A stretch of DNA of 49,065 nt from Bacillota bacterium (GTDB lineage: Bacteria > Bacillota > UBA994): positions 1-49,065 of the forward strand of contig QLUS01000001.1 in NCBI GenBank assembly GCA_018725535.1. The letters are read 5' to 3'. The notes under the pieces are model-generated. The model ran no database searches. It was given only the letters and a program-made list of their open reading frames with translations, and was not told the origin of the DNA. Shown one piece after another: positions 2,091 through 49,065 of the stretch (positions are counted from its first letter, which is position 1; every line of letters starts with the position of its first letter). A program made the translations under genes and the position numbers.

Positions 2091-2179
2091 TGGTGCCGAA
2101 GGCCGGAATCGAACCGGCACGCCCCTCACGGAGCGAGGGATTTTAAGTCCCTTGCGTCTGCCTGTTTCGCCACTTCGGC
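2091..2179 (-). tRNA. tRNA-Leu (anticodon TAA), long variable arm
   Basis: Reverse complement reads GCCGAAGTGGCGAAACAGGCAGACGCAAGGGACTTAAAATCCCTCGCTCCGTGAGGGGCGTGCCGGTTCGATTCCGGCCTTCGGCACCA. Acceptor stem is GCCGAAG/CTTCGGC, the anticodon loop is CTTAAAA, and a class II variable arm and encoded CCA are present. Confidence 0.92.
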
Positions 2180-2191
2180 AAATTAACCAGT

Positions 2192-2266
<75 letters not shown>

Positions 2267-2308
2267 GGAAAAAACCCAACCTACGTTTGTAGCTGAGCAG
2301 ATAAACTA

Positions 2309-2383
2309 TGGAGCGGAAGAAGAGATTCGAACTCTCGACCCTCGCCTTGGCAAGGCGATGCTCTACCGCTGAGCTACTTCCGC
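2309..2383 (-). tRNA. tRNA-Gly (anticodon GCC)
   Basis: Reverse complement reads GCGGAAGTAGCTCAGCGGTAGAGCATCGCCTTGCCAAGGCGAGGGTCGAGAGTTCGAATCTCTTCTTCCGCTCCA. The anticodon loop is TTGCCAA and the acceptor stem is GCGGAAG/CTTCCGC. Confidence 0.92.
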
Positions 2384-2466
2384 ATGCGTTACATTTTGGA
2401 TTTTAGCACAACCACTAACGGCTCGCTTTGTTTGCTCCCAGCTGAACACTGATGCCTCGACAAAGG

Positions 2467-2542
<76 letters not shown>

Positions 2543-2553
2543 ACTTTTCAAAG

Positions 2554-2629
2554 TGGCGGAGTCGACGGGAATCGAACCCGCGATCTCCGGCGTGACAGGC
2601 CGGCATGTTAACCGCTACACCACGACTCC
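2554..2629 (-). tRNA. tRNA-Asp (anticodon GTC)
   Basis: Reverse complement reads GGAGTCGTGGTGTAGCGGTTAACATGCCGGCCTGTCACGCCGGAGATCGCGGGTTCGATTCCCGTCGACTCCGCCA. Anticodon stem is CCGGC/GCCGG with loop CTGTCAC. Confidence 0.92.
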
Positions 2630-2633
2630 AAAG

Positions 2634-2709
2634 TGGTGGGAGCAATAGGGCTCGAACCTATGACCCCCTGCTTGTAAGGCAGGTGCTCTCCCAGCTGAGC
2701 TATGCTCCC
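2634..2709 (-). tRNA. tRNA-Val (anticodon TAC)
   Basis: Reverse complement reads GGGAGCATAGCTCAGCTGGGAGAGCACCTGCCTTACAAGCAGGGGGTCATAGGTTCGAGCCCTATTGCTCCCACCA. The anticodon loop is CTTACAA. Confidence 0.92.
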
Positions 2710-2720
2710 GCGCATTTAGT

Positions 2721-2749
2721 AGTATACTTGCTAACATTTCCGACGTCAA
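2721..2749 (-). promoter_or_regulatory. Sigma-A-type promoter inside the tRNA cluster (drives tRNA-Val-Asp-Phe...)
   Basis: The minus strand reads TTGACG, then a 17-nt spacer (TCGGAAATGTTAGCAAG), then TATACT. It ends about 11 nt upstream of tRNA-Val(TAC). Confidence 0.55.
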
Positions 2750-2769
2750 GCGGGAAGATGGGCTTCTTA

Positions 2770-2790
2770 CCTCTTGCCTCTTGCCTCTTG
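2770..2790. repeat. Heptanucleotide tandem repeat (CCTCTTG)x3
   Basis: Three perfect head-to-tail copies of CCTCTTG lie between tRNA-Val(TAC) and tRNA-Arg. Confidence 0.8.
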
Positions 2791-2793
2791 AAA

Positions 2794-2868
2794 TGGTACG
2801 CCCGAGAGGAATCGAACCTCCGCACCCGGATCCGGAGTCCGGCGCTCTATCCACTGAGCTACGGGCGC
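2794..2868 (-). tRNA. tRNA-Arg (anticodon CCG)
   Basis: Reverse complement reads GCGCCCGTAGCTCAGTGGATAGAGCGCCGGACTCCGGATCCGGGTGCGGAGGTTCGATTCCTCTCGGGCGTACCA. Anticodon stem is CCGGA/TCCGG with loop CTCCGGA. Confidence 0.9.
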
Positions 2869-2932: not shown

Positions 2933-4315
2933 CTACAGCGATCCTACAATTGCCTTAAATTGGCGACCGCGGTCTTCAAAATCACGAAACATATCAAAGC
3001 TCGCGCAAGCAGGCGAGAGCACAACGCTGCTCCCGGGAAGTGTTTGCGCTTGACACCACTCTACCGCAGCGGCCAGGGAAGGCAGAATCGCGCTCTTCAC
3101 GTGTCTCCCGCTTTGGTGCTCGGCTAGTGAAATTTCCTGGGAAATTTTCTGCGCAGTCCTTCCGATAAGCGCTACGGCGCGCACCCGCTCGACAATGACG
3201 CGCGCTAGTTCATCAAAGGGAACCTGCTTGTCAGAGCCGCCGGCGATGAGCACGATGTCTCCTCCAATCGCCGCAAGACCGGCTATGGTGCGCGTCGGAC
3301 TAGAAGCGATCGAGTCATTGTAGTACTTTACGCCGTTTAACTCACGCACTAGTTCTAAGCGGTGCTCTACTGTAGCAAACTCCGTCACGGCTTTCGCTAT
3401 AACTGATACAGGTACATTCTGCACCAAACAGGCGGCAGCGGCAGCCGCGACATTCTCCTGATTGTGCACCCCACGCAGCTTAAGGTCAGCTGCATGACAA
3501 ATTCGTTCTTCTCGCCCCTGCCAACGCGCGATCAAGTGGCCCTCGCGCCAGAACACACCCTCCGGGAGCTCGCTCAGGCGGCTAAAGAACATGGCCTTCC
3601 CCGGCACCGCGGCACCCATGTCGCGCGTAAGAGCATCGTCGTAGTTTAGTATGACCACATCGCCCGGCAGCTGATATCGCCAAATGTTGACCTTAGCCGC
3701 GACATACTCCTTATAGCTCTTATGTACGTCGAGGTGATTGGGAGAGATGTTCGTAATTACAGCCACATGCGGACTTTGTCGCATTGGCATAAGTTGAAAA
3801 CTCGACAGCTCCAAGACAACCCTGTCTCCGTTTTCGATTCTCTCGACCTGCTCAATCAGGGAATTGCCGATGTTGCCTCCCAAGTACGTGTGAGCGCCAG
3901 CTTCTCTGAACACGGCTGCGATCAGGGAAGTTGTGGTGGTTTTGCCGTCGCTCCCAGTTACGGCGGTTATAGGCGCAGGGCACAGCTCACAAAAGAGCTC
4001 GATCTCGCTTGTCACTATGGCGCCGTTCGCAACCGCCGCGCTGAGCTCCGGCAAATCCGGGCGCATGACAGGAGTCTTAAAGATGAGGTCAAACCCCTTA
4101 AGGTCCGCAAGATAGTCCTCACCCAGCCTAAGATCGACTTCTAGACCATCTAGCAGCGCCAGAACTTCTGGCATATCCTGCGCTTGCCGCTTGTCTAGCG
4201 CAGTGACATGCGCGCCCTCCTTAAGCAGGAAGCGCACCAGCGGCACACCGCTTCTTAGACCAAGCCCCAAAACGGCTACTTTCTTACCGCTCTTCGAGCT
4301 AGCTATCTTAGTCAT
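2933..4315 (-). CDS. murD: UDP-N-acetylmuramoyl-L-alanine--D-glutamate ligase
   Basis: N-terminal Rossmann-like VAVLGLGLRSG, Mur-ligase P-loop TGSDGKTTTT, and central and C-terminal Mur-ligase domains. ATG 4315 is preferred over TTG 4321 because AAAGGAG sits 6 nt upstream. Confidence 0.88.
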   Translation of the reverse strand: MTKIASSKSGKKVAVLGLGLRSGVPLVRFLLKEGAHVTALDKRQAQDMPEVLALLDGLEVDLRLGEDYLADLKGFDLIFKTPVMRPDLPELSAAVANGAIVTSEIELFCELCPAPITAVTGSDGKTTTTSLIAAVFREAGAHTYLGGNIGNSLIEQVERIENGDRVVLELSSFQLMPMRQSPHVAVITNISPNHLDVHKSYKEYVAAKVNIWRYQLPGDVVILNYDDALTRDMGAAVPGKAMFFSRLSELPEGVFWREGHLIARWQGREERICHAADLKLRGVHNQENVAAAAAACLVQNVPVSVIAKAVTEFATVEHRLELVRELNGVKYYNDSIASSPTRTIAGLAAIGGDIVLIAGGSDKQVPFDELARVIVERVRAVALIGRTAQKISQEISLAEHQSGRHVKSAILPSLAAAVEWCQAQTLPGSSVVLSPACASFDMFRDFEDRGRQFKAIVGSL

Positions 4316-4411: not shown

Positions 4412-5260
4412 CTACTTGTAGGCGTGAAAGCCTCTGCCGGTCTTGCGGCCAAGGTGGCCCGCCTGTACGAGACGCCGCAGCATGGGCGCAGGGCGGTACT
4501 TGTCACCTAGGCCTGCATGCAGGATTTCCATGATGGAGAGGCACACATCTAAGCCAATTAGGTCTGCTAATGCTAAGGGGCCTAAGGGATGATTCGCGCC
4601 TAGCTTCATCACGGTATCGATGGCCTCCGCAGAAGCTACGCCCTCCTGTAAACAGAAAGCCGCCTCGTTAATCATGGGGATAAGCACCCTGTTTATGACA
4701 AACCCGGGGAAGTCGTTGACCTCTACCCCGGTTTTCCCCATACGCGCTACCACGGACATCGCCGCGCTAAAGGTCTCGTCACTGGTCGCTTGCGCGCGTA
4801 TAACTTCAACTAGTTGCATCAGCGGCACGGGGTTCATGAAATGCATGCCGACTACCCTGCTAGGCCGCTTCGTAAAGGAGGCCAGCTGCGTTAGCGGGAT
4901 ACTCGAGGTATTGCTGGCGAGGATCGTATGTGCGGCGCAGATCTTGTCTAGCTGCAGGAAGATGCCTTTTTTGACTTCTACATTCTCAGTTACAGCCTCA
5001 ACGACCAACTCAACCTCCACAGCGCGATCTAGCTCAGTAGTTGTAGCGATACGGGCAAGAATCTCTTGACGCTCAACGGCAGGAAGCTTTCCTTTTTCTA
5101 CGGCTCGGCTTAACAACCGGTCAATACTCTGCACGGCGCGCGTGAGGTAAGCTGCCTCTAGGTCACAAAGCAGCACATTGTATTTTGCTTCTGCCGCCAC
5201 CTGCGCAATGCCGCTGCCCATCTGTCCGGCACCTATTACCATGATCGTCCTAATCTCCAT
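4412..5260 (-). CDS. hbd: 3-hydroxybutyryl-CoA dehydrogenase
   Basis: NAD-binding VIGAGQMGSGIAQ and 3-hydroxyacyl-CoA dehydrogenase core (SNTSS, HFMNPVPLMQLVEV, GRKTGRGF). ATG 5260 is preferred because AAAGGAG lies 8 nt upstream. Confidence 0.88.
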   Translation of the reverse strand: MEIRTIMVIGAGQMGSGIAQVAAEAKYNVLLCDLEAAYLTRAVQSIDRLLSRAVEKGKLPAVERQEILARIATTTELDRAVEVELVVEAVTENVEVKKGIFLQLDKICAAHTILASNTSSIPLTQLASFTKRPSRVVGMHFMNPVPLMQLVEVIRAQATSDETFSAAMSVVARMGKTGVEVNDFPGFVINRVLIPMINEAAFCLQEGVASAEAIDTVMKLGANHPLGPLALADLIGLDVCLSIMEILHAGLGDKYRPAPMLRRLVQAGHLGRKTGRGFHAYK

Positions 5261-11746: not shown

Positions 11747-11759
11747 GTAGGTGTCAACT

Positions 11760-11940
11760 AAATACGCTGTGGGGTGCCCCTAGGCTTAGGGGTTAAAAGG
11801 GAATCAGGTGTAAATCCTGAGCGGTCCCGCCACTGTAACGGGTAGTGCCTACACTTGACCACTGTTCGCGCGGCGAATGGAAGGGATTAGGCACGTTACT
11901 CCCGTAGTCAGGAAACCTGCCCCAGAGCTAAGACGCCGTC
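11760..11940 (+). ncRNA. Cobalamin (B12) riboswitch
   Basis: Conserved core AAAAGGGAATCAGGTGTAAATCCTGAGCGGTCCCGCCACTGTAA and B12 box AGTCAGGAAACCTGCC. P1 pairing is CTGTGGGG / CCCCAGAG. It is followed by a terminator and a btuFCD-type operon. Confidence 0.9.
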
Positions 11941-12053: not shown

Positions 12054-12145
12054 GGGGACGGTTCCTTTTGTAACAGAGACCCGTCCCTTGGAACAAAAAA
12101 CCGTCCCCTAGAACCGTCCTCTGAAACAAAAAGAACCGTCCCTTA
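12054..12145. repeat. GGGGACGG...CCGTCCC palindromic element, copy 2, plus three further AACCGTCCC half-sites
   Basis: GGGGACGGTTCCTTTTGTAACAGAGACCCGTCCC (12054..12087) differs from copy 1 by one substitution. It is followed by AAAAAACCGTCCCC, GAACCGTCCTC and AAAAAGAACCGTCCC. The whole block sits between the riboswitch terminator and the btuF RBS. Confidence 0.8.
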
Positions 12146-28359: not shown

Positions 28360-29538
28360 TTATTGAATGACTCCCATTTCTTTCGCTACTGCCGCAAAGG
28401 CTTCGAGGGCGAAATCGAGGTCGTCCCTAGTGTGTGAGGCCGATATCATGGCACGAATGCGCGCCTTTCCCTTGGCCACCGTCGGGAAGCCAATCTTGGT
28501 GGCAAACACACCCCTTTGGAACAGGCGACGGCTCATCTCGCCTGCCACTTCCGCTTCGCCAAGCATTACCGGTGTTATAGGCGTCTCGCTTTTCCCAATG
28601 TCAAAACCTAATCTGCTCATACCAGCCTTGAAGTAGCGGGCATTATCCCACAATCTCTCTACAGGCTCGCCGCTCGCCGTAAGGATTTCAATGGCCTTCG
28701 CTGTAGCTGCCACATCAGGCGGCGTAAGCGCCGAGCTAAACAGGAAGGGGCGCGCGCGCTGTTTAAGATACTCAATCAGCTTAGCGCTCCCGGCAGCAAA
28801 GCCGCCAATAGTCCCTATAGCCTTAGAAAAAGTGCCTACTTCCACGTCTACTTGACCGTGCAGGTGGAAGTGATCGACAATACCTCGTCCGTTCTCTCCC
28901 AGCACACCTTCGCCGTGGGCATCGTCGACCATAGTCATGGCGCCGTAGCGTTTAGCGATGGCCACAATTTGGGGCAGTTTGGCTATATCCCCGTCCATGC
29001 TAAAGACGCCGTCGGTGATGACCAGCACCCGCCCAGTGTTAACGCCCTTAAGCACTGACTCCAGTGAGTCCGGATCATTATGTTTGTAGACCTTAATCTC
29101 GGCACGACTTAAGCGTGCCCCATCAATAATGCTAGCGTGATTCAGCTCATCGGACACAATGATGTCGTCCTTACCGACTAAAGCGGCAATAACGGCGAGG
29201 TTAGCCATAAAGCCTGACTGCAACGTAAGTGCGGCCTCCACGCGTTTGAACTCAGCCACTTGCCTATCAAGCCCGGCGTGGAGACTCATAGTCCCGGCAA
29301 TACTCCGCACGGCAGCAGGACCAACGCCAAACTCGGAAATCGCATCCATGGCCGCTTGACGGAGACGCGGGTCGTTCGCGAGGTTTAGGTAGTTGTTTGA
29401 GCAGAGGTTGAGCTTCTTCTGACCGCCAATGACAATCCACGCGCCCTGCGCGCTCTCTATAACCTTGATGTCATTGTAAAGCCCGCTGCTCTTAAGCTCC
29501 TGCAGGATTTCGTCGATGAAACTGAGACTTTCTGGCAT
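28360..29538 (-). CDS. kbl: Glycine C-acetyltransferase (2-amino-3-ketobutyrate CoA ligase) / BioF-family PLP enzyme
   Basis: Alpha-oxoamine synthase motifs are present: [22 protein letters not shown] and the PLP lysine in [11 protein letters not shown] 29538 follows AAGGAGG by 6 nt. The ORF-track extension to 29661 translates the heptamer repeat array. Confidence 0.85.
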
Positions 29539-29553
29539 ATGTGACCTCCTTTT

Positions 29554-29623
29554 GTGAACTTTGAATCGTGAATCTTGAATCATGAACGGGGGAGGCTTCC
29601 CGCTTTCCGCTTTCCGCCGTACG
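29554..29623. repeat. Heptanucleotide array A
   Basis: Ten in-phase heptamers on the + strand: GTGAACT TTGAATC GTGAATC TTGAATC ATGAACG GGGGAGG CTTCCCG CTTTCCG CTTTCCG CCGTACG. Confidence 0.85.
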
Positions 29624-29626
29624 CCT

Positions 29627-30001
29627 CTACTGCCTCTCCTTACCCGAGAGGTGCTTTTCATAGATTGTTTCTCTCAGTTCCTCCGAGCGGAGGCTGCGCC
29701 AGTCAAGCTCTGAGGTGCCGCGTCGCGTCACAGGGTCAAACTTAAGTGAGGTCGGCTCGGCTAAGAACGTCAGCACCATGCGGTGCAAGCTTTCGTTGCG
29801 CTTCTCGCGGGAGAGGTGACGAGTGACTCTTACATCTGCGCCGGTTTGTGCGGCCACAGTGCGCCGCACGGCATCCTCTGGAGTTTCGCCCTCTTCCACG
29901 TCTCCGCCCGGCAGAGCCCATACTCCCCCGAGTGGTCTAACCATAAGCACATGATGGCCATTAAGGACAATAGCTTGAACGTAGATTCTGCGATAATCCA
30001 T
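29627..30001 (-). CDS. Nudix-fold protein with degenerate Nudix box
   Basis: [29 protein letters not shown] fits Gx5Ex7R, but the REUxEE glutamates read RTVAAQ. Confidence 0.7.
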
Positions 30002-30036
30002 GTTCGACTCTCCCTTCCATCATCTTCTCTAGCCTT

Positions 30037-30065
30037 AGCATACCAGAGGGCAATGTGCTGCGCAA
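30037..30065 (-). promoter_or_regulatory. Sigma-A-type promoter upstream of the Nudix-kbl-yhaM block
   Basis: The minus strand reads TTGCGC, a 17-nt spacer, then TATGCT. It lies about 35 nt upstream of the Nudix ATG, which is preceded by GGAAGGGAG. Confidence 0.4.
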
Positions 30066-30142
30066 CGCCGAGGCGACTCGCGCGAGTAGGGAAGCAGTAG
30101 GGACGGAGCCTTTTGCTTCCGTGGAGTACATCACGCGCGCGC

Positions 30143-30276
30143 CTGCCGTTAGCCGTTAGGAGGCTTTCCGCTTTCCGCTTTCCGCTTTCCGCTTTCCGTT
30201 AGCCGTTAGGAGGCTTCCCGCTTTCCGCTTTCCGCTGTACGCTGTAAGCTGTAAGCTGTAAGCTGTAAGCTGTAAG
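30143..30276. repeat. Heptanucleotide array B (duplicated module)
   Basis: + strand: TTAGCCG TTAGGAGG (CTTTCCG)x5, then TTAGCCG TTAGGAGG CTTCCCG (CTTTCCG)x2 CTGTACG (CTGTAAG)x5. It ends 8 nt before the stop codon of the 820-aa peptidase gene. Confidence 0.9.
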
Positions 30277-30284
30277 CGTCCCTC

Positions 30285-32747
30285 TTAGCGAAACAACGCA
30301 TTAAACAAAACCTTATACGTTCCCCTTGACTGCGCGCGGTGATGTGGTCGAAACCCAATCAGCACCACTCGCCCTTTTTTTACTGTGCACTCTAGGAGCG
30401 CCGCGCGCCCACTAAGCCTCTCTGCCCCATGCAACAAGCCGCACACGAGAGGATTGACCGCAGGGTAGCGGCCCACCGCTTTCGCTGTCTCATCGGCTGA
30501 GAACACGGGACTGCGCACAAAGACTACTGCCGCCGCCTGAGGCATGCCGTAGGCGAGCGGATGGCTAATGTCGAACGCAACCCGCAAGAAGGACCCAGGC
30601 ACTAGGAACTCGTCCTCGCGTGCGGAGCCGACCACATTAGTTACCTTAAGCCGCAGAGCTTCGATACACCAATCGCAGGCGTGGTCGACCCCAACCACGG
30701 TGCCCCCGCCCAGAGCGAACTCGCGGAGTGCCTGCGCTCCGGCCATACCCAGACCTCCGCAGTATTCCCTTGGGTAGACACCGGGCATCAGCCCTTCGCT
30801 GATAGTTTTCGCGCGCGCACTGGGTATAACCACCACGTCAAAGCGCTCGGCGAGCCCGCCCGCGCGGATATCTTGGTCTTTAAGCGTGGCATAGGGGATA
30901 GCGTGCTGCTCGAGCACAAAGCGCATAAACCCTTCATCCGGGTTAGGCACATATCCTTGATAAACCCCCACACGCGGCACCTGAGTAAGGGTCGTAACCG
31001 ACGGCAAGTCTGTGCCGGGCAGAGTCCCCACACTAAGTCCTAGGTCAGCAGCAAGCTCCATCACGAGCTCGCGCGCCTCCCCGCTTACTATCAGCGTGCC
31101 GGGTGGCAGTTCCGGGTCTTCACAATCATGCTTTAGCCGATGTACGGGGACCTCTGCTGCGAGGAATCGAGCCAAGGCCGTATACATCCCATTAGGTTCA
31201 GGGCGAATGTACAACCAACGCCCGTGCAGTGATACTGCAGGCGGATTGGGGACAAACCTTGGCGGCTGTTTGATACGGGCCAGTGAAGCCTTAAAAGGCG
31301 CGCGAATTTCGGTGACGGTGACACCCATCTGAATGGGAAGGCTGTGGGCAGCCATATCGTAGGGCTGCCGCAGAAATCCATCAGAGAAACGACGCACGTC
31401 TGGGTAACTCTGATTCTCGAGCAGCGTCTTGGCAAAAGAGGAATACGGCTGCTGCATCAGCACTACGTAGTTGCCTGCTGTGTAGTCCACGCCGTCGGCA
31501 GAAAACGGCAGCAGAGCCGCATGGATCTCCACACCGCCAAACATCAGTAGCTCGATGAGCTCAGCCGCGACTCGTGGGTCACGCTGCTTAGGCGGCAAGA
31601 CAAAGGCGTAAGTATAGGGTTTTGGTGCAGTGGCCCGCTGTCCAATCGCGACAAAGTTCTTAAGCCACAGCCTGCGATACTTGGCGGCGTGCCGAAGGCA
31701 AGCGAGGGCTGCTAGCTTGCAGTATTCCACTATGTCACGTAAGCGCCACTCGCCCCCTCTCCACGGCTCTGGCTGGTTCCATGTGGCGATGCGCGGGTCA
31801 TACCCCCTGCCCCCGCGCAGATGTTGCTCGTCAAGCGTTACAGGCGTGGCCAGTCTCGCACTCGCCACCTCGGCCAGAATGCGCACTCCCCCGTGGTAGT
31901 GTTGGTAGCTGCGGCTCGGAGAATAGGCGTCGTATGTTACGTTCGTCATCACGCCAGTCTTCCCGTGCGCAGACAACTCAGCCGCGATGGTTTGCCCGAG
32001 CCACGCCGCACCTTGGCGGATGAGGGGATCGACATTGGGGTCATAGGGGTCGACAAAGGGGGGTAGTACTATGCGCGGCCCGTCTTGGCCCTGTTGATGG
32101 AAATCAAGCACTATTTGCGGGTGCCAAGTGTTATGGATATGTTCTACCATCAACCGTGTCTCCTGTTGTGTGAACATAAACCAGTCACGGTTATTGTCGT
32201 GCCCGGCATAGCGGTGATAAAGCTGTGGCGGTGCCGTCCCCTCATAAGCTGTGCCAAGCGTTTGCCGGTACCAATCAACGACTAGATCTAAGCCGTCCGG
32301 GTTTGCGCAAGGGACAAGCAGCAGAACGGTATTATCGAGCGATTCCATAGTCTCTTCGTCACACGCCGTCACTAACTCATAGGCCAGCTCGAGGCTCATT
32401 TGCGTGGGGCCGACCTCTGTGGCATGGATGCTGTTTGTCATTAAAACAACTGTCTTACCTAGCGCCATAAGCTCGGCTAATTGGTTGTCCTGCTTCCCAC
32501 GTGGGTCAGCCAGCTCTCTTTGCACTTGCTCAATTTGCTCTAACCGCGCGTGGTTTTCGCTCGACGTAATTACCACCAACAGAAAGGGGCGCCCTTCCGT
32601 ACTCCGGCCAATTTCAGTCACCCTACAACGGGGGCTACTTTCGCTGAGCACGCGAAAATAGCCTGTGATTTGCTCCCAATCGGCAAGGCTCCTGTCCGCG
32701 CCTACGGGGAAACCTAGGTGCTGTTCGGGACTACGCAAGGGCGTCAC
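30285..32747 (-). CDS. Large M14-family metallopeptidase with additional C-terminal domains
   Basis: 820 aa. The N-terminal M14 domain carries STEGRPFLLVVI, HxxE in NSIHATEVG, CANPDG and HDNNRDWF. About 450 further residues have no assigned function. Confidence 0.8.
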   Translation of the reverse strand: MTPLRSPEQHLGFPVGADRSLADWEQITGYFRVLSESSPRCRVTEIGRSTEGRPFLLVVITSSENHARLEQIEQVQRELADPRGKQDNQLAELMALGKTVVLMTNSIHATEVGPTQMSLELAYELVTACDEETMESLDNTVLLLVPCANPDGLDLVVDWYRQTLGTAYEGTAPPQLYHRYAGHDNNRDWFMFTQQETRLMVEHIHNTWHPQIVLDFHQQGQDGPRIVLPPFVDPYDPNVDPLIRQGAAWLGQTIAAELSAHGKTGVMTNVTYDAYSPSRSYQHYHGGVRILAEVASARLATPVTLDEQHLRGGRGYDPRIATWNQPEPWRGGEWRLRDIVEYCKLAALACLRHAAKYRRLWLKNFVAIGQRATAPKPYTYAFVLPPKQRDPRVAAELIELLMFGGVEIHAALLPFSADGVDYTAGNYVVLMQQPYSSFAKTLLENQSYPDVRRFSDGFLRQPYDMAAHSLPIQMGVTVTEIRAPFKASLARIKQPPRFVPNPPAVSLHGRWLYIRPEPNGMYTALARFLAAEVPVHRLKHDCEDPELPPGTLIVSGEARELVMELAADLGLSVGTLPGTDLPSVTTLTQVPRVGVYQGYVPNPDEGFMRFVLEQHAIPYATLKDQDIRAGGLAERFDVVVIPSARAKTISEGLMPGVYPREYCGGLGMAGAQALREFALGGGTVVGVDHACDWCIEALRLKVTNVVGSAREDEFLVPGSFLRVAFDISHPLAYGMPQAAAVVFVRSPVFSADETAKAVGRYPAVNPLVCGLLHGAERLSGRAALLECTVKKGRVVLIGFRPHHRAQSRGTYKVLFNALFR

Positions 32748-32813
32748 CTCCTCTTGTGAACTGGGAACTGTGAGCTAGGGAGAAACAAAAATCAAAGGTG
32801 ATGGACCATGGAT

Positions 32814-32877
32814 GGGGGAGGCTTTCCGCTTTCCGCTTTCCGCTTTCCGCTGTCCGCTGTAAGCCGTAAGCTGTAAG
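32814..32877. repeat. Heptanucleotide array C
   Basis: + strand: GGGGGAGG (CTTTCCG)x4 CTGTCCG CTGTAAG CCGTAAG CTGTAAG. It lies in the divergent intergenic region between the M14 gene and the decarboxylase gene. Confidence 0.9.
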
Positions 32878-32894
32878 CTCTCACAAATGGGCAC

Positions 32895-32923
32895 TTGAAC
32901 ATTGCTCGCCATAGGTTTAATAT
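32895..32923 (+). promoter_or_regulatory. Sigma-A-type promoter of the decarboxylase gene
   Basis: TTGAAC, a 17-nt spacer, then TAATAT. This implies a 5' leader of about 120 nt before the start codon. Confidence 0.55.
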
Positions 32924-33051
32924 ATCGCTGTATGCGCAAAGTTAGAGAAACATGCGGAAAACAGAGCAAAACGCTAACCACCGCGCAGGATGGCAGTTTA
33001 CGGCATATTAAGCGACATATCGCATCATTAGGACGACAGGAGGCTCTCGAG

Positions 33052-34539
33052 TTGAGGAACAAGAAGGGCACCGCGCACATGGCACTCGAGCGCAGGCAAA
33101 GCCGCACACCGCTTTTTGACGCTTTGCGCAACTACGTGCGTGAAGGTACACTCTCTTTTCATGTCCCCGGCCACAAGCACGGCAAGGGGCTGCCTGAGTT
33201 TACTCGCTTTGTGGGTAAGAACGTCATGAACATCGATCTTACGATCATGCCGGACCTCGACAGCATCTACAAGCCGCACGGGCCAATCAAAGCCGCACAA
33301 GACTTAGCCGCCGAGGCCTTTGGGGCTGACTACGCGCACTTCCTCAGTAATGGCACGACCGCTGGCATTCACTGCATGTTGATGTCTACTTTGCGCCCGG
33401 GCGACAAGTTTATCGTGCCGCGCAATGCCCACAAATCCGTTATTTCGGCAATGATTCTTACTGGGGCCGAACCGGTGTACATCCAGCCCTACGTAGATAA
33501 TTACCTCGGCGTAGCCATGGCCATTACCGCCGATGAAGTACGGCAGGCCTTGCGCCAGCAGCCCGATGCCAAAGCCGTTTTCGTCATTAACACTACCTTT
33601 TATGGTATGGCACCGGAACTTGAGCGCATCGTGGAGATCGCCGAGGACTACGAGATCCCGGTTCTAGTTGACGAAGCGCACGGGGCACACCTTAAATTCC
33701 ACCCTAGTCTCCCCCTGTCGGCCATGGAAGCCAAGGCGGACATGGCTGCCCTGAGTACGCATAAGCTCCTAGGCTCCATGACTCAGAGCTCGCTCTTGCT
33801 TACCCGCGGCGACTTAGTAGACCCGCAGTACGTTAAGACCACCCTGAATCTAACGCAGACTACCAGCCCCAGCTACCCCCTGCTAGCCTCGCTGGATATC
33901 GCGCGCAAACAAGTTTTCTTCCGCGGTCAAGAGATGCTTACACATGCCATTAACCTTGCTAACTGGGCGCGATACGAGATAAACAACAGCATCCCCGGCC
34001 TCTATGTCTACGGTAACGACATGGTGGGACAACCCGGTTGTTACGAATATGACCCCACTAAGCTGTGCATTAACGTGCGCGCCCTTGGCATTTCCGGCTT
34101 TGAAATGGAACGCATTCTAAGGCAAGGATTCCATATCCAAGTAGACCTCTCTGACTTGTACAACGTATTGTGCGTAGTAAGTATTGCCGACACGAAGGAA
34201 AACGTGCGCACCTTAGTGCATGCGCTGAGCGAAATTGCGCGTAAGTTTACCGTGCAAGACGTGCGCGAACATCCCATTGAGCTGCCGCCGCTCCCGGCTC
34301 TCGCATATTTGCCGCGCGAGGCCTTCTATGCGGAGACCAAGCGCGTGCCCCTAGAACAGGCCAAGGGCAAAATCGTAGCCGAAATGCTGATGGCCTATCC
34401 GCCCGGCATCCCCCTCATCTGTCCAGGCGAGATCCTCACGGAAGAAATCATTGACTACGTGCGCATGCTTACAGAAGCAGATGCACAAATTTACGGCACA
34501 GAGGACCCTAACGCTGAGTATATTAAGATTGTGCGCTAG
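33052..34539 (+). CDS. Orn/Lys/Arg decarboxylase (fold-type I PLP, SpeA/YaaO-like)
   Basis: TPLFDALRNYVREGTLSFHVPGHKHGKG, GTTAGIHCM and the PLP-lysine region LSTHKLLGSMTQSS. The start is either TTG 33052 (AGGAGG 8 nt upstream) or ATG 33079. The ORF-track start at 32902 is upstream of the predicted -10 element. Confidence 0.85.
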   Translation: MRNKKGTAHMALERRQSRTPLFDALRNYVREGTLSFHVPGHKHGKGLPEFTRFVGKNVMNIDLTIMPDLDSIYKPHGPIKAAQDLAAEAFGADYAHFLSNGTTAGIHCMLMSTLRPGDKFIVPRNAHKSVISAMILTGAEPVYIQPYVDNYLGVAMAITADEVRQALRQQPDAKAVFVINTTFYGMAPELERIVEIAEDYEIPVLVDEAHGAHLKFHPSLPLSAMEAKADMAALSTHKLLGSMTQSSLLLTRGDLVDPQYVKTTLNLTQTTSPSYPLLASLDIARKQVFFRGQEMLTHAINLANWARYEINNSIPGLYVYGNDMVGQPGCYEYDPTKLCINVRALGISGFEMERILRQGFHIQVDLSDLYNVLCVVSIADTKENVRTLVHALSEIARKFTVQDVREHPIELPPLPALAYLPREAFYAETKRVPLEQAKGKIVAEMLMAYPPGIPLICPGEILTEEIIDYVRMLTEADAQIYGTEDPNAEYIKIVR

Positions 34540-34544
34540 CCCGC

Positions 34545-34684
34545 GCGTAGCGTGGCGGCGTACAGCGTACAGCGTACGGAGGCGTGCTCCGTGCCCAGTG
34601 CCCAGTAGCGGAAAGCGGAAAGCGGAAAGCGGAAAGCGGAAAGCGGAAAGCCTCCCCCGTTCATGATTCACAGCTCAAAGCTCA
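34545..34684. repeat. Heptanucleotide array D (20 consecutive in-phase heptamers)
   Basis: + strand: GCGTAGC GTGGCGG (CGTACAG)x2 CGTACGG AGGCGTG CTCCGTG CCCAGTG CCCAGTA (GCGGAAA)x5 GCCTCCC CCGTTCA TGATTCA CAGCTCA AAGCTCA AAGCCCT. It fills the convergent gap between the decarboxylase and glnL-like genes. Confidence 0.9.
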
Positions 34685-34689
34685 AAGCC

Positions 34690-35550
34690 CTAGCGGCCTG
34701 CGGCCGCTTCATGCGCTAACGCATTTAAAAAGCGCTTAAGGCTTATCTTCCCTCCATAGGGCGCGTTGTGTTCAACATGCCGCATCTCGCACCGCACTTC
34801 GGCAAAGTCAAAAAACGTGGCTGCATAGTTCTCAAAGCGCGGGTGGGCGTAGTCCTCAAGCCCTAGCGCGGCTAGGTGACGCAAAGCGGATTGCACTGCA
34901 CGCCGCATGCGCTGCTCAGCCGCTTTTTGCGCAGTAAGGCTATCCCCCGCGACATGCAGAAGCAAGTCCTTCACGGATACGGTGTCCCTTGTATGGCCGC
35001 AGGCAATAAAAAGAGCTGCATCCTCCAAATCGCGTGCGCCTGACTCTCCACCAATGCCTAAATCATGCAGAAACGCCCTTATTTTGCGCCTCGTCTTGTC
35101 AGTCACCGCGGCGGGTTGCGGCGCAGTCGAGACACTGAGCTCGGCCATAGAGCGGTAGATACTGCTGACAGTTCGCTTTAGGGCGAGGGTTTCACACACC
35201 TTGGCTAAGACAGCGCGTACTTCCCTGCTATTGATCGGCTTGTGAATAAAGAAGTCAATGCCCGCATCGTAGGCTGCCTCCACCATCACCTTAGCCTGCA
35301 CTTGCGAGAGCATCACAAAAGAAGCCGTCAGGCTCGCGGACAACAGGCGTACCAGTTCAATGCCGTCCATATCTGGCAACAGCAAGTCAACCAAGACAAT
35401 ATCGGCGGCTGCGGAAAGCAGTGCCTGTCGTGCATCATGGCCGCAACTGGCAGAACCCGCCAGTACACCTAACCCGCTGTCCTGAATTACCTCTTGCAGC
35501 ATCCGCCTTACGGCAATGTCATCGTCGACCACGAAAAAGCGGTAGTGCAC
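34690..35550 (-). CDS. glnL: Response regulator, GlnL (YcbB) family
   Basis: Receiver domain (FFVVDDDIAVRRML...VLVDLLLPDMDGIELV) and YcbB-type output region. It closely parallels B. subtilis GlnL motifs (MLSQVQAKVMVEAAYDAGIDFFIHKPIN; PRFENYAATFFDF). GTG 35550 follows GAGGGGGG. Confidence 0.78.
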   Translation of the reverse strand: MHYRFFVVDDDIAVRRMLQEVIQDSGLGVLAGSASCGHDARQALLSAAADIVLVDLLLPDMDGIELVRLLSASLTASFVMLSQVQAKVMVEAAYDAGIDFFIHKPINSREVRAVLAKVCETLALKRTVSSIYRSMAELSVSTAPQPAAVTDKTRRKIRAFLHDLGIGGESGARDLEDAALFIACGHTRDTVSVKDLLLHVAGDSLTAQKAAEQRMRRAVQSALRHLAALGLEDYAHPRFENYAATFFDFAEVRCEMRHVEHNAPYGGKISLKRFLNALAHEAAAGR

Positions 35551-35551
35551 C

Positions 35552-36808
35552 TTAATCCCCCCTCGGCAGCGGTATTTGCACGCTAAACGTACTGCCCTTA
35601 CCCTGCTCACTACGCACCGAAATTTCGCCGGCGAGACTTTGAGCTATGGCTTTTACCTGAGCCAGGCCTAAACCTGTAGAGGCTTGCCCTGTGTCGGGGT
35701 TATACTTCGTCGTGTACCCAGGTTCAAAGACTACGCGTAGGTCTTGTTCGCTAATCCCTATGCCTGTATCTCGCACGGCAATATGTAAGTCCATGTCGAG
35801 GACCCGTACGTCTAACCACACAGTGCCCACATGTGGTATGGCTTCGATGGCGTTGCCCATCAGGTTGTTAATAATAGCTAGTATGCGGTGGTAGGCCGCG
35901 ACTTCTGCCTGCCCTTCAATAGAAGAGTGAATGGCAATGTCTTTGCCCTGCTCGTTCGCTAGGGCTTGGTTTGCTTTTACCGCGACTTCTGCGAGTGTCT
36001 GCAGTGCCAGCAGTTTCCCCTGGCTTTCCTTAACCACCACATGGCGGAGCCGCGCCGCCAGACGGGCAAAATCTCGCTTGGCGTCGTGGATTTCCCTCGC
36101 CACGGCCAAGGCGGATTCGGCTTCATCGAGTCCTGATGTTTTTAGCCGCTTGTACAACTGGTGGCTCTGCACCATCACCGATTCTACTTGGGCCAGTGTG
36201 TTTTCAAGATAGAGCAACTCCCCAGTCACATCAGAGGTCAAGAGCAGTAGGCGCCGAAATTCGCGCTCTCTCTGCTCCTGCTTGATGATGACCTCGCGCT
36301 GCTGCCAAGCCGTGTAAGCGAGCCCGGTCAAGGCTCCCCTCACCAAGGCCACTAACCCTAGGAGGTAAACCATAGGTAGAATATCCCGATTAGCGAAATC
36401 TCCCCGAACCACAAGTTCACCGATGTTTGCGCCCATATCGAGAAAAGCCAGACCCCAGACTATGTCTAGCCCCCCGCTGTTTAGCCCCTGTCGCCACAGA
36501 GCCAGCCCCACACCCAGCAAGAGATAGAAAACTCCGGCGGGATAGTGTTTGTCGAGGCCTTGCAGCAACGGTACTTCCGCCAACAAGAAGCCAGCTCCGG
36601 CGCGAAATACTGTGACTGCTACACCCGTGGCCAAACCCGCCACCGGACGGTTCAAACGCTCATGCACCAAGAGATAAAAGCAAAACACACTCACCGCTAG
36701 GCTAAACCTAAACCCGGTGCCAAAGGGAAAGAAACTGAAGTTGCTTACAAAAACGGTGAGAAGCGCGAGATAGGTGAGCGACTTAGTGTTCTGCCACAGC
36801 TTCCACAC
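35552..36808 (-). CDS. glnK: Sensor histidine kinase, GlnK (YcbA)-like, polytopic N-terminal sensor
   Basis: Five or six N-terminal TM helices, a phospho-acceptor region (AREIHDAKRDF) and a GHKL ATPase (NLMGNAIEA, DTGIGI, GLGLAQV). It ends 1 nt before the regulator start. Confidence 0.75.
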   Translation of the reverse strand: MWKLWQNTKSLTYLALLTVFVSNFSFFPFGTGFRFSLAVSVFCFYLLVHERLNRPVAGLATGVAVTVFRAGAGFLLAEVPLLQGLDKHYPAGVFYLLLGVGLALWRQGLNSGGLDIVWGLAFLDMGANIGELVVRGDFANRDILPMVYLLGLVALVRGALTGLAYTAWQQREVIIKQEQREREFRRLLLLTSDVTGELLYLENTLAQVESVMVQSHQLYKRLKTSGLDEAESALAVAREIHDAKRDFARLAARLRHVVVKESQGKLLALQTLAEVAVKANQALANEQGKDIAIHSSIEGQAEVAAYHRILAIINNLMGNAIEAIPHVGTVWLDVRVLDMDLHIAVRDTGIGISEQDLRVVFEPGYTTKYNPDTGQASTGLGLAQVKAIAQSLAGEISVRSEQGKGSTFSVQIPLPRGD

Positions 36809-45172: not shown

Positions 45173-45375
45173 TGGCGTATAGCACATGGCGCATAGCACA
45201 TGGCGGAGTTGTTATCTGCTTTCGGGCTGGCAGCGGGGGAGAAAGTAAAATCGGAGCACGGGGCACAAAGCACGTCTCCGCACGCCACTGGGCACTGGGC
45301 ACTACTCTATGTGCTATGCGCCATGCGCGGTCATGATTCACGATTCACAGTTCATGATTCAAGGAGGCCTCTCAC
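45173..45375. repeat. Heptanucleotide array E (29 in-phase heptamers ending at a start codon)
   Basis: + strand: TGGCGTA TAGCACA TGGCGCA TAGCACA TGGCGGA ... CACGGGG CACAAAG CACGTCT CCGCACG CCACTGG GCACTGG GCACTAC TCTATGT GCTATGC GCCATGC GCGGTCA TGATTCA CGATTCA CAGTTCA TGATTCA AGGAGGC CTCTCAC, then ATG 45376. Confidence 0.8.
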
Positions 45376-45843
45376 ATGTCAACCCAACCACGCAGAAGCG
45401 ACCGCACTGTCACTAGAGAAGAAGCGCTAGACTACCTCGCGCAGGCGGAGGTAGGATTCTTGGCACTAGCTACCGACAATGAACCCTACGCAGTACCACT
45501 CCACTTTGTCTTGCAGGGCATACCCTGTATTTTCACTGCGCCAAAGACGGGCGCAAGCTCGACATGCTGAGGCAGAATCCCCGCTGCTGTGTGGCAGTAT
45601 CGTTCTTGGACGGCATTAAGGAAGGGAAAGCGGCCTGTGACTTCGGTACGTATTACCGCAGCGCCATCGCCACAGGTGTCGCTCGGGTAGTGGACGATAC
45701 AGGCGAAAAAATTGCAGCGCTTAATGCGCTCACCGAGAAGCACGCCACCAAGGAATTTGTGCCTGCTGGCGCTCTCGACGCCGCGAAGGTTGTGGTGGTC
45801 GCCATCGACTGCCGAGGTCAGCGGCAAAGCGCGACGCAGGTAG
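45376..45843 (+). pseudogene. Pyridoxamine 5'-phosphate oxidase-family (FMN-binding split-barrel) gene with two frameshifts
   Basis: The N-terminus (RRSDRTVTREEALDYLAQAEVGFLALATDNEPYAVPLHFVLQG) is in frame 1. The middle (TLYFHCAKDGRKLDMLRQNPRCCVAVSF...AKVVVVAID) is in frame 0, starting about 45520. The C-terminus (AEVSGKARRR-stop at 45841..45843) is back in frame 1, starting about 45811. Confidence 0.7.
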
Positions 45844-49008: not shown

Positions 49009-49018
49009 CCGAAAATGG

Positions 49019-49065
49019 CTTTCCGCTTTCCGCTTGCAGCTGCTTGTGGGGAGGCGGATAGCGGA
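49019..49065. repeat. Heptanucleotide array F (truncated by window end)
   Basis: + strand: (CTTTCCG)x2 CTTGCAG CTGCTTG TGGGGAG GCGGATA GCGGA. It lies immediately upstream of the murA -35 element. Confidence 0.75.

Follow-up and report, generated by a model that had tools for sequence, protein, structure and literature searches.

A genus-limited family of intergenic heptanucleotide mosaics in an uncultured Bacillota genome

Heptanucleotides are over-represented among the long simple-sequence repeats of bacteria, an observation that PMC4679880 and PMC4692102 credit to Mrazek, Guo and Shah (2007), together with the idea that slippage produces them. As far as these two sources describe them, such repeats have a unit of 7 nt, are abundant in a few scattered lineages, lie mostly in non-coding DNA and are ascribed to polymerase slippage with a preferred 7-nt step; in all these respects the arrays described here appear to be of the same kind. 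The lineages named there are Burkholderia, Cyanobacteria, Actinobacteria and Xanthomonas, whereas our arrays come from an uncultured Bacillota genus and, unlike the repeats as portrayed in those sources, hold several unit types in a fixed polar order.

The sections of PMC4679880 consulted report assemblages of mixed heptamers, TAACTGA among them, in the cyanobacteria Microcystis and Cyanothece and in the Bacteroidetes Gramella, Aequorivita and Elizabethkingia. Cyanothece strains are said there to differ by 7-nt indels, spacers of close relatives to be short and free of repeats, orientation to genes to be mixed in Microcystis, and contigs to end in repeats. These assemblages also place different heptamers side by side in one spacer, but the units found here are others (GCGGAAA, GCTTACA, TGATTCA, TTTGATT and more), and the conserved GCC linker and the polar order of our arrays are not described for them in those sections. 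The TAACTGA repeats of the marine Beggiatoaceae, as far as that account goes, are likewise heptamer direct repeats, some of them only a few nucleotides ahead of start codons, as are the TGATTCA units of our arrays A and E; in contrast, the orientation of our arrays is random and array D, the one studied most closely, lies between two stop codons.

According to the parts of PMC4692102 consulted, each Xanthomonas genome carries about 180 intergenic GGGAATC loci whose length and sequence vary between species at the same gene pairs, and the GGGAATC and GGGGA(T/C)T repeats of Xanthomonas and Nostoc resemble our arrays in being intergenic and variable. The same source portrays GGGAATC units as carrying G-runs able to form quadruplexes, whereas GCGGAAA, TGATTCA and the like have no run of three G. 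No GGG occurs in the array D units GCGTACA, GTGCCCA, GCGGAAA and TGATTCA, so that they lack the GGG per unit of quadruplex-forming heptamers. Neither a GCC linker nor a polar order of modules is described in the literature consulted on heptamer repeats; a limited search, which leaves absence unproven, found no match for GCGGAAA or TGATTCA as heptamer repeats.

The BIMEs of enterobacteria are intergenic mosaics of a few short modules that recur in a preferred order at many loci, and the REP units of which they consist are palindromes, imperfect and about 35 nt long. Our arrays differ in that the modules are tandem heptamers. Hairpin-forming palindromes are missing from array D, whose predicted RNA fold is poorer than those of its shuffles (z +2.18; 199 of 200 shuffles fold at least as well); array E does possess inverted arms.

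Heptamer arrays of the window and of its genome

The window is a stretch of 49,065 nt on contig C1 of a metagenome-assembled genome of 1.75 Mb in 209 contigs (G000), assigned to the phylum Bacillota by its nearest protein clusters. Array D fills a whole spacer between an Orn/Lys/Arg decarboxylase gene (32902-34539, plus strand; Pfam OKR_DC_1, 3.2e-86) and the gene of a YcbB-type response regulator (34690-35610, minus strand; Pfam YcbB, 1.2e-31, plus Response_reg). It is built of head-to-tail 7-nt copies, as is proper to a heptanucleotide simple-sequence repeat, and its period-7 rows in the TRF output start at 34558, 34591, 34607 and 34668. Its parts are as follows.

34540..34689, plus strand: array D, a wholly filled spacer of 150 nt between two convergent stop codons (ORFs)
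34558..34578, plus strand: three GC-anchored units, GCGTACA, GCGTACA and GCGTACG (TRF row 34558-34577)
34579..34607, plus strand: 29-nt piece with GTGCCCA x2.3 at 34591-34606 (TRF); gap length mod 7 is 1
34608..34649, plus strand: GCGGAAA x6, by sequence parse
34650..34656, plus strand: GCC linker GCCTCCC, 7 nt, the minority form (the 9-nt GCCACYCCG is commoner)
34657..34691, plus strand: TCA-ended units CCGTTCA, TGATTCA, CAGCTCA, AAGCTCA and AAGCCCT (TRF row 34668-34688)
34692..34705, plus strand: heptamer-like AGCGGCC TGCGGCC, within the last response regulator codons, which are on the opposite strand

The last unit, AAGCCCT, overlaps the stop codon of the regulator (CTA, 34690-34692). The original prediction had cut 34545-34684 into 20 heptamers; its parse is correct as listed except that GCGGAAA occurs six times and not five, so that AAGCCCT, given as the last of the 20, is really the 21st unit (34685-34691). 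On contig C141, a 22-nt stretch resembles the 29-nt piece at 34579..34607.

Five more arrays, all in spacers like array D, were found in the window.

29555..29625, minus strand: array A; GCGTACG, GCGGAAA x2, GCGGGAA, GCCTCCC, CCGTTCA and TGATTCA-type x4; lag-7 identity 0.67, z 7.9
30140..30285, minus strand: array B; TTTCCGC, GCCGTTA and GCTGTAA blocks with a 50-nt internal duplication; lag-7 identity 0.75, z 11.2
32815..32885, minus strand: array C; GCTTACA-type x3, GCGGACA, GCGGAAA x4, GCC linker and TTTGATT module; lag-7 identity 0.77, z 8.9
45173..45375, plus strand: array E; period-14 TGGCGCA/TAGCACA, non-periodic 45206-45256, CACTGGG x2.6 and TGATTCA-type x4; lag-7 identity 0.51, z 8.1
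49010..49065, no strand assigned: array F, at the window end; TTTCCGC x2.6 followed by GCGGATA-type units, which run in the opposite orientation; lag-7 identity 0.53, z 4.5

Read on the minus strand, array A runs into the Shine-Dalgarno (SD) sequence and ATG of an aminotransferase gene. Array C occupies the divergent spacer between an M14 peptidase and a decarboxylase gene, and array E adjoins an SD sequence and the ATG at 45376. For array D the lag-7 identity was 0.67-0.68 (z 9.4-10.6), against 0.27 +/- 0.04 and a maximum of 0.386 in 500 dinucleotide shuffles; for none of the arrays A to F did any of 500 such shuffles reach the observed value. Period 7 accounts for 18 of the 31 TRF rows of the window. 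When 23 crude spacers of the window were scanned, four gave a lag-7 z of 7-11 and the other 19 of at most 2.1, a scan that overlooked array A, hidden by an over-long ORF call, and covered the spacer of array F only at its unperiodic start.

In the whole genome, period 7 comprises 222 of 770 TRF rows, the next being period 9 with 114, and the merged arrays of period 7, 14 or 21 number 187 and cover 7.9 kb. Period 7 is thus over-represented among the tandem repeats of this genome, and at many loci. The commonest period-7 units are GCGGAAA (36 of 222 rows), GCGGACA, GCCGTAA, TTTTTGA and TGATTCA. At many loci the modules follow one order, in which GCTTACA, GCGTACA or GCGGACA units are followed by GCGGAAA, then by the GCC linker and then by TGATTCA or TTTGATT: the first group lies within 35 nt upstream of 16 of 22 GCGGAAA blocks and downstream of none, and GCC comes next after the block in 17 of the 22. 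Past the linker stand xAGTTCA/TGATTCA or TTTGATT units, sometimes GGCTGGC units or an SD sequence with a start codon. A non-periodic piece, TTTGTTTGCTTCC, is common to five array loci. Within a block the 7-nt periodicity is strict, whereas the linkers from one block to the next are non-periodic and vary in length. Array D is one copy of a family of intergenic heptanucleotide mosaics, which is limited to the genus.

The register across blocks of unrelated units

Array D with its row of heptamers and array E with its 29 units had been said to keep a single 7-nt register through blocks of unrelated sequence, and this was taken to argue for unit-wise slippage and mutation or for something that reads the arrays with a 7-nt ruler. 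Wherever such blocks abut, however, a common frame can be found for them, since any of the seven rotations is open to each further unit; a single register is for this reason not an independent property of an array. The claim acquires content only if the linkers are themselves periodic, or if the units are anchored on both sides. When phase was tested loosely, by matches of single heptamers, chance matches in coding DNA drowned the result, and block-based tests were used instead.

The linkers carry no lag-7 signal. Those of array D gave 3 of 11 (34573-34590) and 4 of 11 (34650-34667) lag-7 matches, with no excess, and the middle of array E (45206-45256) gave 17 of 44, or 0.39, compared with 0.40 at lag 8. 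When runs of at least five matches were masked in array D, 22 of 72 lag-7 matches were left, against a background of 0.26 (p = 0.22); array E keeps a lag-7 excess after masking, which comes from imperfect repeats and not from its middle part. By these linker counts the degenerate parts have no period-7 excess, the very outcome that the original prediction had named as refuting it.

The anchored units are also out of phase. As anchor we used the GC start common to GCTTACA, GCGTACA, GCGGACA, GCGGAAA and GCGGCCT. In array D the anchor slips by +1 twice, across the 29-nt gap between GCGTACA and GCGGAAA and across a 43-nt gap between GCGGAAA and GCGGCCT; the first of these shifts follows from the length of the piece at 34579..34607, which is 4x7+1. 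Array B slips by +1 over the 22 nt that separate its two TTTCCGC blocks, which are thus out of phase. Starting at 45173 and reaching the ATG at 45376, array E spans 203 nt, which are the 29 units stated before; its first unit reads TGGCGTA. By direct sequence reading, its CAC-started units shift by 1 nt between CACGTCT and CACTGGG.

Genome-wide, the 22 GC-anchored gaps distribute over the residues 0 to 6 of length mod 7 as 8, 7, 1, 0, 0, 4 and 2. Seven of the eight in-phase gaps are visibly mutated units 7-28 nt long, and among the gaps that hold other modules none of 10 is in phase. The linkers from GC-units to xxxTTCA blocks (17 loci) distribute as 5, 0, 8, 3, 1, 0 and 0; the five multiples of 7 include those of arrays D and A, which have the 7-nt GCCTCCC, while the commoner 9-nt GCCACYCCG leaves a remainder of 2 in eight loci. 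Ahead of TTTGATT blocks, no linker of five is in phase. Several linker lengths, like the comparisons of empty with filled sites given below, were first read by eye and re-counted by script only in part.

Taken together, the apparent common register results mostly from the way in which the units are cut. A ruler that keeps phase from the first unit to the last, in array E up to the start codon, would agree with the 7-nt linker GCCTCCC of arrays D and A and with the 29 x 7 nt that end exactly at the ATG of array E. It is very improbable in view of the linkers, whose length is divisible by 7 at no more than 5 of 17 loci before xxxTTCA and at none of five before TTTGATT and which carry no lag-7 signal, of the 0 of 10 module-holding gaps in phase and the slips by 1 in both D and B, and of the start codons, in phase with the TGATTCA block at one of five loci, namely E. 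A molecular ruler reading DNA or RNA in sevens would have followed from a single register, and it is not supported.

Orthologous spacers in relatives and the origin of the mosaics

Four congeners (G001-G004) were compared, of which G002 is the closest relative of G000; the samples of the relatives are small, 14-179 kb. A two-copy GCGGAAA pattern occurs 50 times in G000, 29 times in G002 and 14 times in G004; it is absent from G001 and G003, and each of 36 genomes from other genera has it at most once. The junction CCCCnTAGTTCATGATTCA, with at most three mismatches, was found 10 times in G000, three times in G002, once in G003 and five times in G004, and in none of the other 37 genomes searched (G001 and 36 other relatives). 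Per 100 kb sampled, period-7 rows of at least three copies number 68.1 in G004, 11.0 in G003, 10.2 in G002, 8.4 in G000 and 1.7 in G001. Outside these five, in samples from the family or class, the density was 2.5 in G005 and G006, 0 in G008, G009, G010 and G013, and 14.2 in G007, the last from a sample of 14 kb only; the two class-level relatives G010 and G013 have no such row in 80 and 50 kb. Arrays make up about 2% of the sampled DNA in G004 and almost none in G001.

Beyond the relatives, at least 119 loci with GCGGAAA in three or more copies occur among the matches listed, in Verrucomicrobiota, Planctomycetota, Bacteroidota and others, and a second, different heptamer block stands at 31 of these 119. 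A composite element shared with other phyla was rejected, as none of these loci, inspected by eye, has the GCC linker followed by TGATTCA. Loss of mismatch repair as a genus-wide cause was likewise discarded: MutS_I and MutL_C are present in 15 of 15 genomes, with full-length frames in the array-rich G002-G004. The mutS gene of G000 itself looks frameshifted.

At the sites orthologous to arrays A to E, the following was seen.

Site A, by sequence comparison: G002 has the same architecture with TTTCCGC x4, vs x3 in G000
Site A: G001 has about 5 nt and no array; G003 and G004 have other heptamers
Site B: G002 has only TTTCCGC x2 and TGTACGC x1; G000 has 146 nt with the 50-nt duplication
Site C: G002 shares the linker and TTTCCGC x2, followed by about 12 CCGTCAA-type units in place of GCTGTAA
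Site C: G002 is without the 31-nt TTTGATT module
Site D: G002 has GCACATG/GCGCATG in about 15 units, a contig break, seven GAAGGCG units, a GCC linker and units similar to TTTTGAT
Site D: G003 has GCTTGTC and AGGAGCT units; G004 has a 262-nt mosaic in opposite orientation
Site D: G001 has no spacer, and the regulator ortholog carries a different C-terminal tail (by eye)
Site E: in G002 the left block has grown to about 24 units and the rest is replaced

Array A lies within a match of 1183 nt that is 93% identical between G000 and G002 and is conserved about as well as its coding flanks. At one of the five sites (A) these two genomes thus differ by an exact one-unit indel, and at the other four (B-E) by replaced or much-changed modules. 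The spacer near 40.77 kb has no array in G000 and G002 and holds arrays in G003 and G004, so that the notion of arrays always occupying the same spacers across the genus is only partly true. An array-free spacer likewise differs between G000 and G002, and since the coding flanks are only 79-93% identical, we make no claim of array turnover above neutral.

These comparisons bear on two statements made earlier. That independent insertions would not produce the observed pattern is contradicted by modules replaced, added or greatly expanded at four of five orthologous sites between G000 and G002, and by the unrelated heptamers that G003 and G004 carry there. Growth by unit-wise slippage and mutation is supported by the in-phase variant units and the one-unit difference at site A. 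The phase conservation across blocks from which it had been argued is not real.

That the arrays are artefacts of short-read metagenome assembly might be suspected from the contig ends, where lag-7 sequence is enriched (7 of 418 ends, vs 51 of 20000 random windows), and from the break of a G002 contig inside the ortholog of array D. It is hardly credible, however, given that G002, G003 and G004 are independent assemblies with arrays at the same orthologous spacers, that array A hardly differs between G000 and G002, and that the genome richest in arrays, G004, is an assembly of far fewer contigs (70). All copy numbers given here come from metagenome assemblies, in which arrays may be collapsed or missing.

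The best reading of these data, and in our opinion a reasonably probable one, is slippage in 7-nt steps combined with exchange of modules between loci, which agrees with what is known of heptamer repeats in cyanobacteria, Bacteroidetes and Xanthomonas. Copy number would change by replication slippage, 7 nt per step, a step size suggested by the difference of exactly one unit between G000 and G002 at site A. Units would drift by point mutation with the phase kept, to which the seven mutated units among the eight in-phase gaps point. Whole modules with their linkers may be copied or exchanged among loci by ectopic recombination or template switching, since arrays B, C, D and E differ from their G002 counterparts by whole modules. 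The arrays would then be tolerated filler, holding no text for a 7-nt ruler and ending where an SD sequence, promoter or stop codon begins, with purifying selection acting at these edges only. The common vocabulary and the fixed polar order could also stem from selection for a function.

A rather unlikely alternative would derive the mosaics, as copies, from a non-autonomous mobile element similar to a MITE or BIME, whose heptamer blocks, as simple repeats in its interior, expand after insertion between genes. The conserved module order, the non-periodic linkers common to many loci, the confinement of the junction to four congeners, the inverted arms of array E and of the G004 arrays, which have AGTGCCC at one flank and CACTGGG at the opposite one, and the site that is array-free in G000 and G002 and filled in G003 and G004 would all suit such an element. 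Against it, the G001-empty and G000-filled states of sites A and D revealed, by eye, no terminal inverted repeats or target duplications, the ends of the presumed element are undefined, and the arrays differ in the modules they hold.

Placement of the arrays, signals and biological meaning

At least 80% of the array falls within crude intergenic DNA for 104 of the 187 merged arrays, where intergenic DNA, as delimited by crude gene calls, is 14% of the genome. The arrays are mainly non-coding. The gene calls used, greedy ORFs of at least 100 aa, weaken this count: of 109 arrays scored with them, 31 fell inside an ORF and 23 at a contig edge. Inside an ORF, a change by one 7-nt unit shifts the frame. 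The features of a phase-variation locus are not found at these arrays: array D lies between convergent stop codons, the window arrays are outside ORFs, and 29400-34900 holds no promoter consensus.

The arrays have no preferred orientation to genes or GC skew. In spacers of tandem genes, array strand and gene strand agree 15 times and are opposite 15 times; the 3' side of the array faces a gene start 24 times, with a distance of at most 50 nt in nine of these, and a gene end 26 times. Neither the comparison of array strand with the G-rich strand (match 31, other 26) nor that with the local gene strand (34 against 27) is significant. The start-proximal placement of TAACTGA-type repeats is accordingly not seen, with 24 gene starts vs 26 gene ends on the 3' side and array D between stop codons.

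Signals within the arrays are few. With Rfam 15 at the gathering score, the window gave nine matches, a cobalamin riboswitch and eight tRNAs, none of them at the arrays, and no promoter or terminator consensus was found inside the arrays of 29400-34900. In array E the reverse complement of the TGGCGCA/TAGCACA block lies at about 45307-45330 and would form with it a 19-bp stem of inverted heptamer arms, the predicted RNA fold having a z of -2.7. RNA structure or a known RNA family as the basis of the arrays was rejected, because Rfam is silent, array D is unstructured and a stem exists in array E only.

TGATTCA-type blocks end 14-32 nt ahead of a start codon, beside the SD sequence, at five loci, those of arrays A and E included. 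This placement, the vocabulary and order conserved within the genome, the good conservation of array A in G002 and MacGregor's proposal for start-proximal heptamers, as given in the parts of PMC4679880 consulted, would agree with a cis-regulatory role, in which a DNA- or RNA-binding protein would occupy the arrays as multivalent sites, within 5'-UTRs or promoters, and copy number would tune expression. We regard such a role as unlikely, since array D is flanked by two stop codons, orientation to genes is random (15/15 and 24/26), an SD sequence follows only five of about 24 true TGATTCA blocks, G001 is without arrays at sites A, B and D and has kept the flanking genes, and the units that G003 and G004 have at the same sites are others.

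A bolder idea goes beyond slippage with module exchange, namely that an active, lineage-specific process writes polar heptamer blocks by the GCC linker and copies them between spacers. It seems quite improbable to us, yet it stays open because variant units stand upstream of GCGGAAA in 16 of 22 cases and never downstream, and because the content of the arrays is rewritten from one sister species to another, with the vocabulary kept in four of five congeners. If this were true, the preference for period 7 would go back to a dedicated polymerase, to a recombination activity or to a protein that binds the arrays, any of which would also account for the GCGG-type heptamer arrays of unrelated phyla.

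In practical terms, the arrays break metagenome assemblies, and copy numbers from such assemblies are not to be trusted. For the biology of repeats, they are a clear further case, from an uncultured Bacillota genus, of the preference of bacterial tandem repeats for 7 nt, which still lacks an explanation. Their usefulness lies in a small unit vocabulary, a polar module order and five related genomes whose array content grades from almost nil in G001 to about 2% of the sampled DNA in G004, a graded set that suits asking what makes a lineage heptamer-prone and whether such arrays are neutral.

Heptamer arrays in congeners and in other phyla

Heptamer mosaics, the intergenic blocks of tandem 7-nt units, were very abundant in the congener G004, where 68 period-7 rows (3 or more copies) were counted per 100 kb sampled and heptamer mosaics made up roughly 2.2% of the DNA sampled. 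In the G004 loci examined (L123, L131, L134, L139, L203 and L211), blocks of the AGTGCCC and CACTGGG types were paired as inverted arms, between which lay a conserved non-repeat core resembling CCACTGCGACACCGC. For the congener G003, the array in the spacer orthologous to the one near 40.77 kb in the window was readable only in part, because of an internal run of N that may represent a scaffold gap:

G003 contig C7, about 4070-4160 (locus L210): run of N within the heptamer array

Tandem GCGGAAA (three or more copies) was found at no fewer than 119 public loci (L001-L119) from many unrelated phyla, and among the matches listed these were mainly Verrucomicrobiota, Planctomycetota and Bacteroidota. 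Also among the matches listed, GCGGAGA, GCGGAGG or GCGGACA variants often adjoined the GCGGAAA arrays, and a second, different heptamer block did so in 31 of the 119 loci.

A second interspersed element and the RNA genes

The window contains a copy of a second interspersed element, a hairpin, which had no match in Rfam:

30090-30130, minus strand: hairpin element, GAAGCAAAAGG-CTCCGTC-CCTTTTGCTTC

A pattern search of the G000 genome returned 35 matches including this copy, only one of which was devoid of a hairpin arm. The element is often followed by extra tandem copies of CTTTTGCTTC, and at five loci or more it lies immediately 3' of GCGGAAG/GCGGAAA heptamer blocks. A period-33 repeat at 12077-12142 looks related to this element. 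The RNA genes identified with Rfam were as follows:

11755-11938, plus strand: cobalamin riboswitch (99.3 bits)
101-174 and 2094-2868, minus strand: cluster of eight tRNA genes

TRF also reported a TCTTGCC heptamer block (3.7 copies) at 2765-2790, flanked by two tRNAs.

Mismatch repair genes of G000

Outside the window, mutS of G000 does not lie in a single frame:

contig C199, 3115-5685: mutS, in three frames of 151, 365 and 394 codons

Relative to the intact ortholog of G002, with which it shares 94% identity, it is missing 2 nt near position 3453 and 1 nt near 4521; either mutS is genuinely a pseudogene or the assembly is in error here. The mutL gene, located 3' of mutS, is apparently intact, with a frame of 548 codons.

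Array D and the end of the response regulator gene

Array D occupies the spacer (34540-34689) between the convergent decarboxylase and YcbB-type response regulator genes, and the stop codon of the latter falls inside the array. The final codons of the regulator gene are encoded by the heptamer-like AGCGGCC TGCGGCC (34692-34705). The ortholog in G001 (L122), an array-poor congener, has a different tail, and there both convergent stop codons overlap. Since the end of the regulator gene is heptamer-like and the G001 tail differs from it, heptamer arrays seem able to remodel gene ends.
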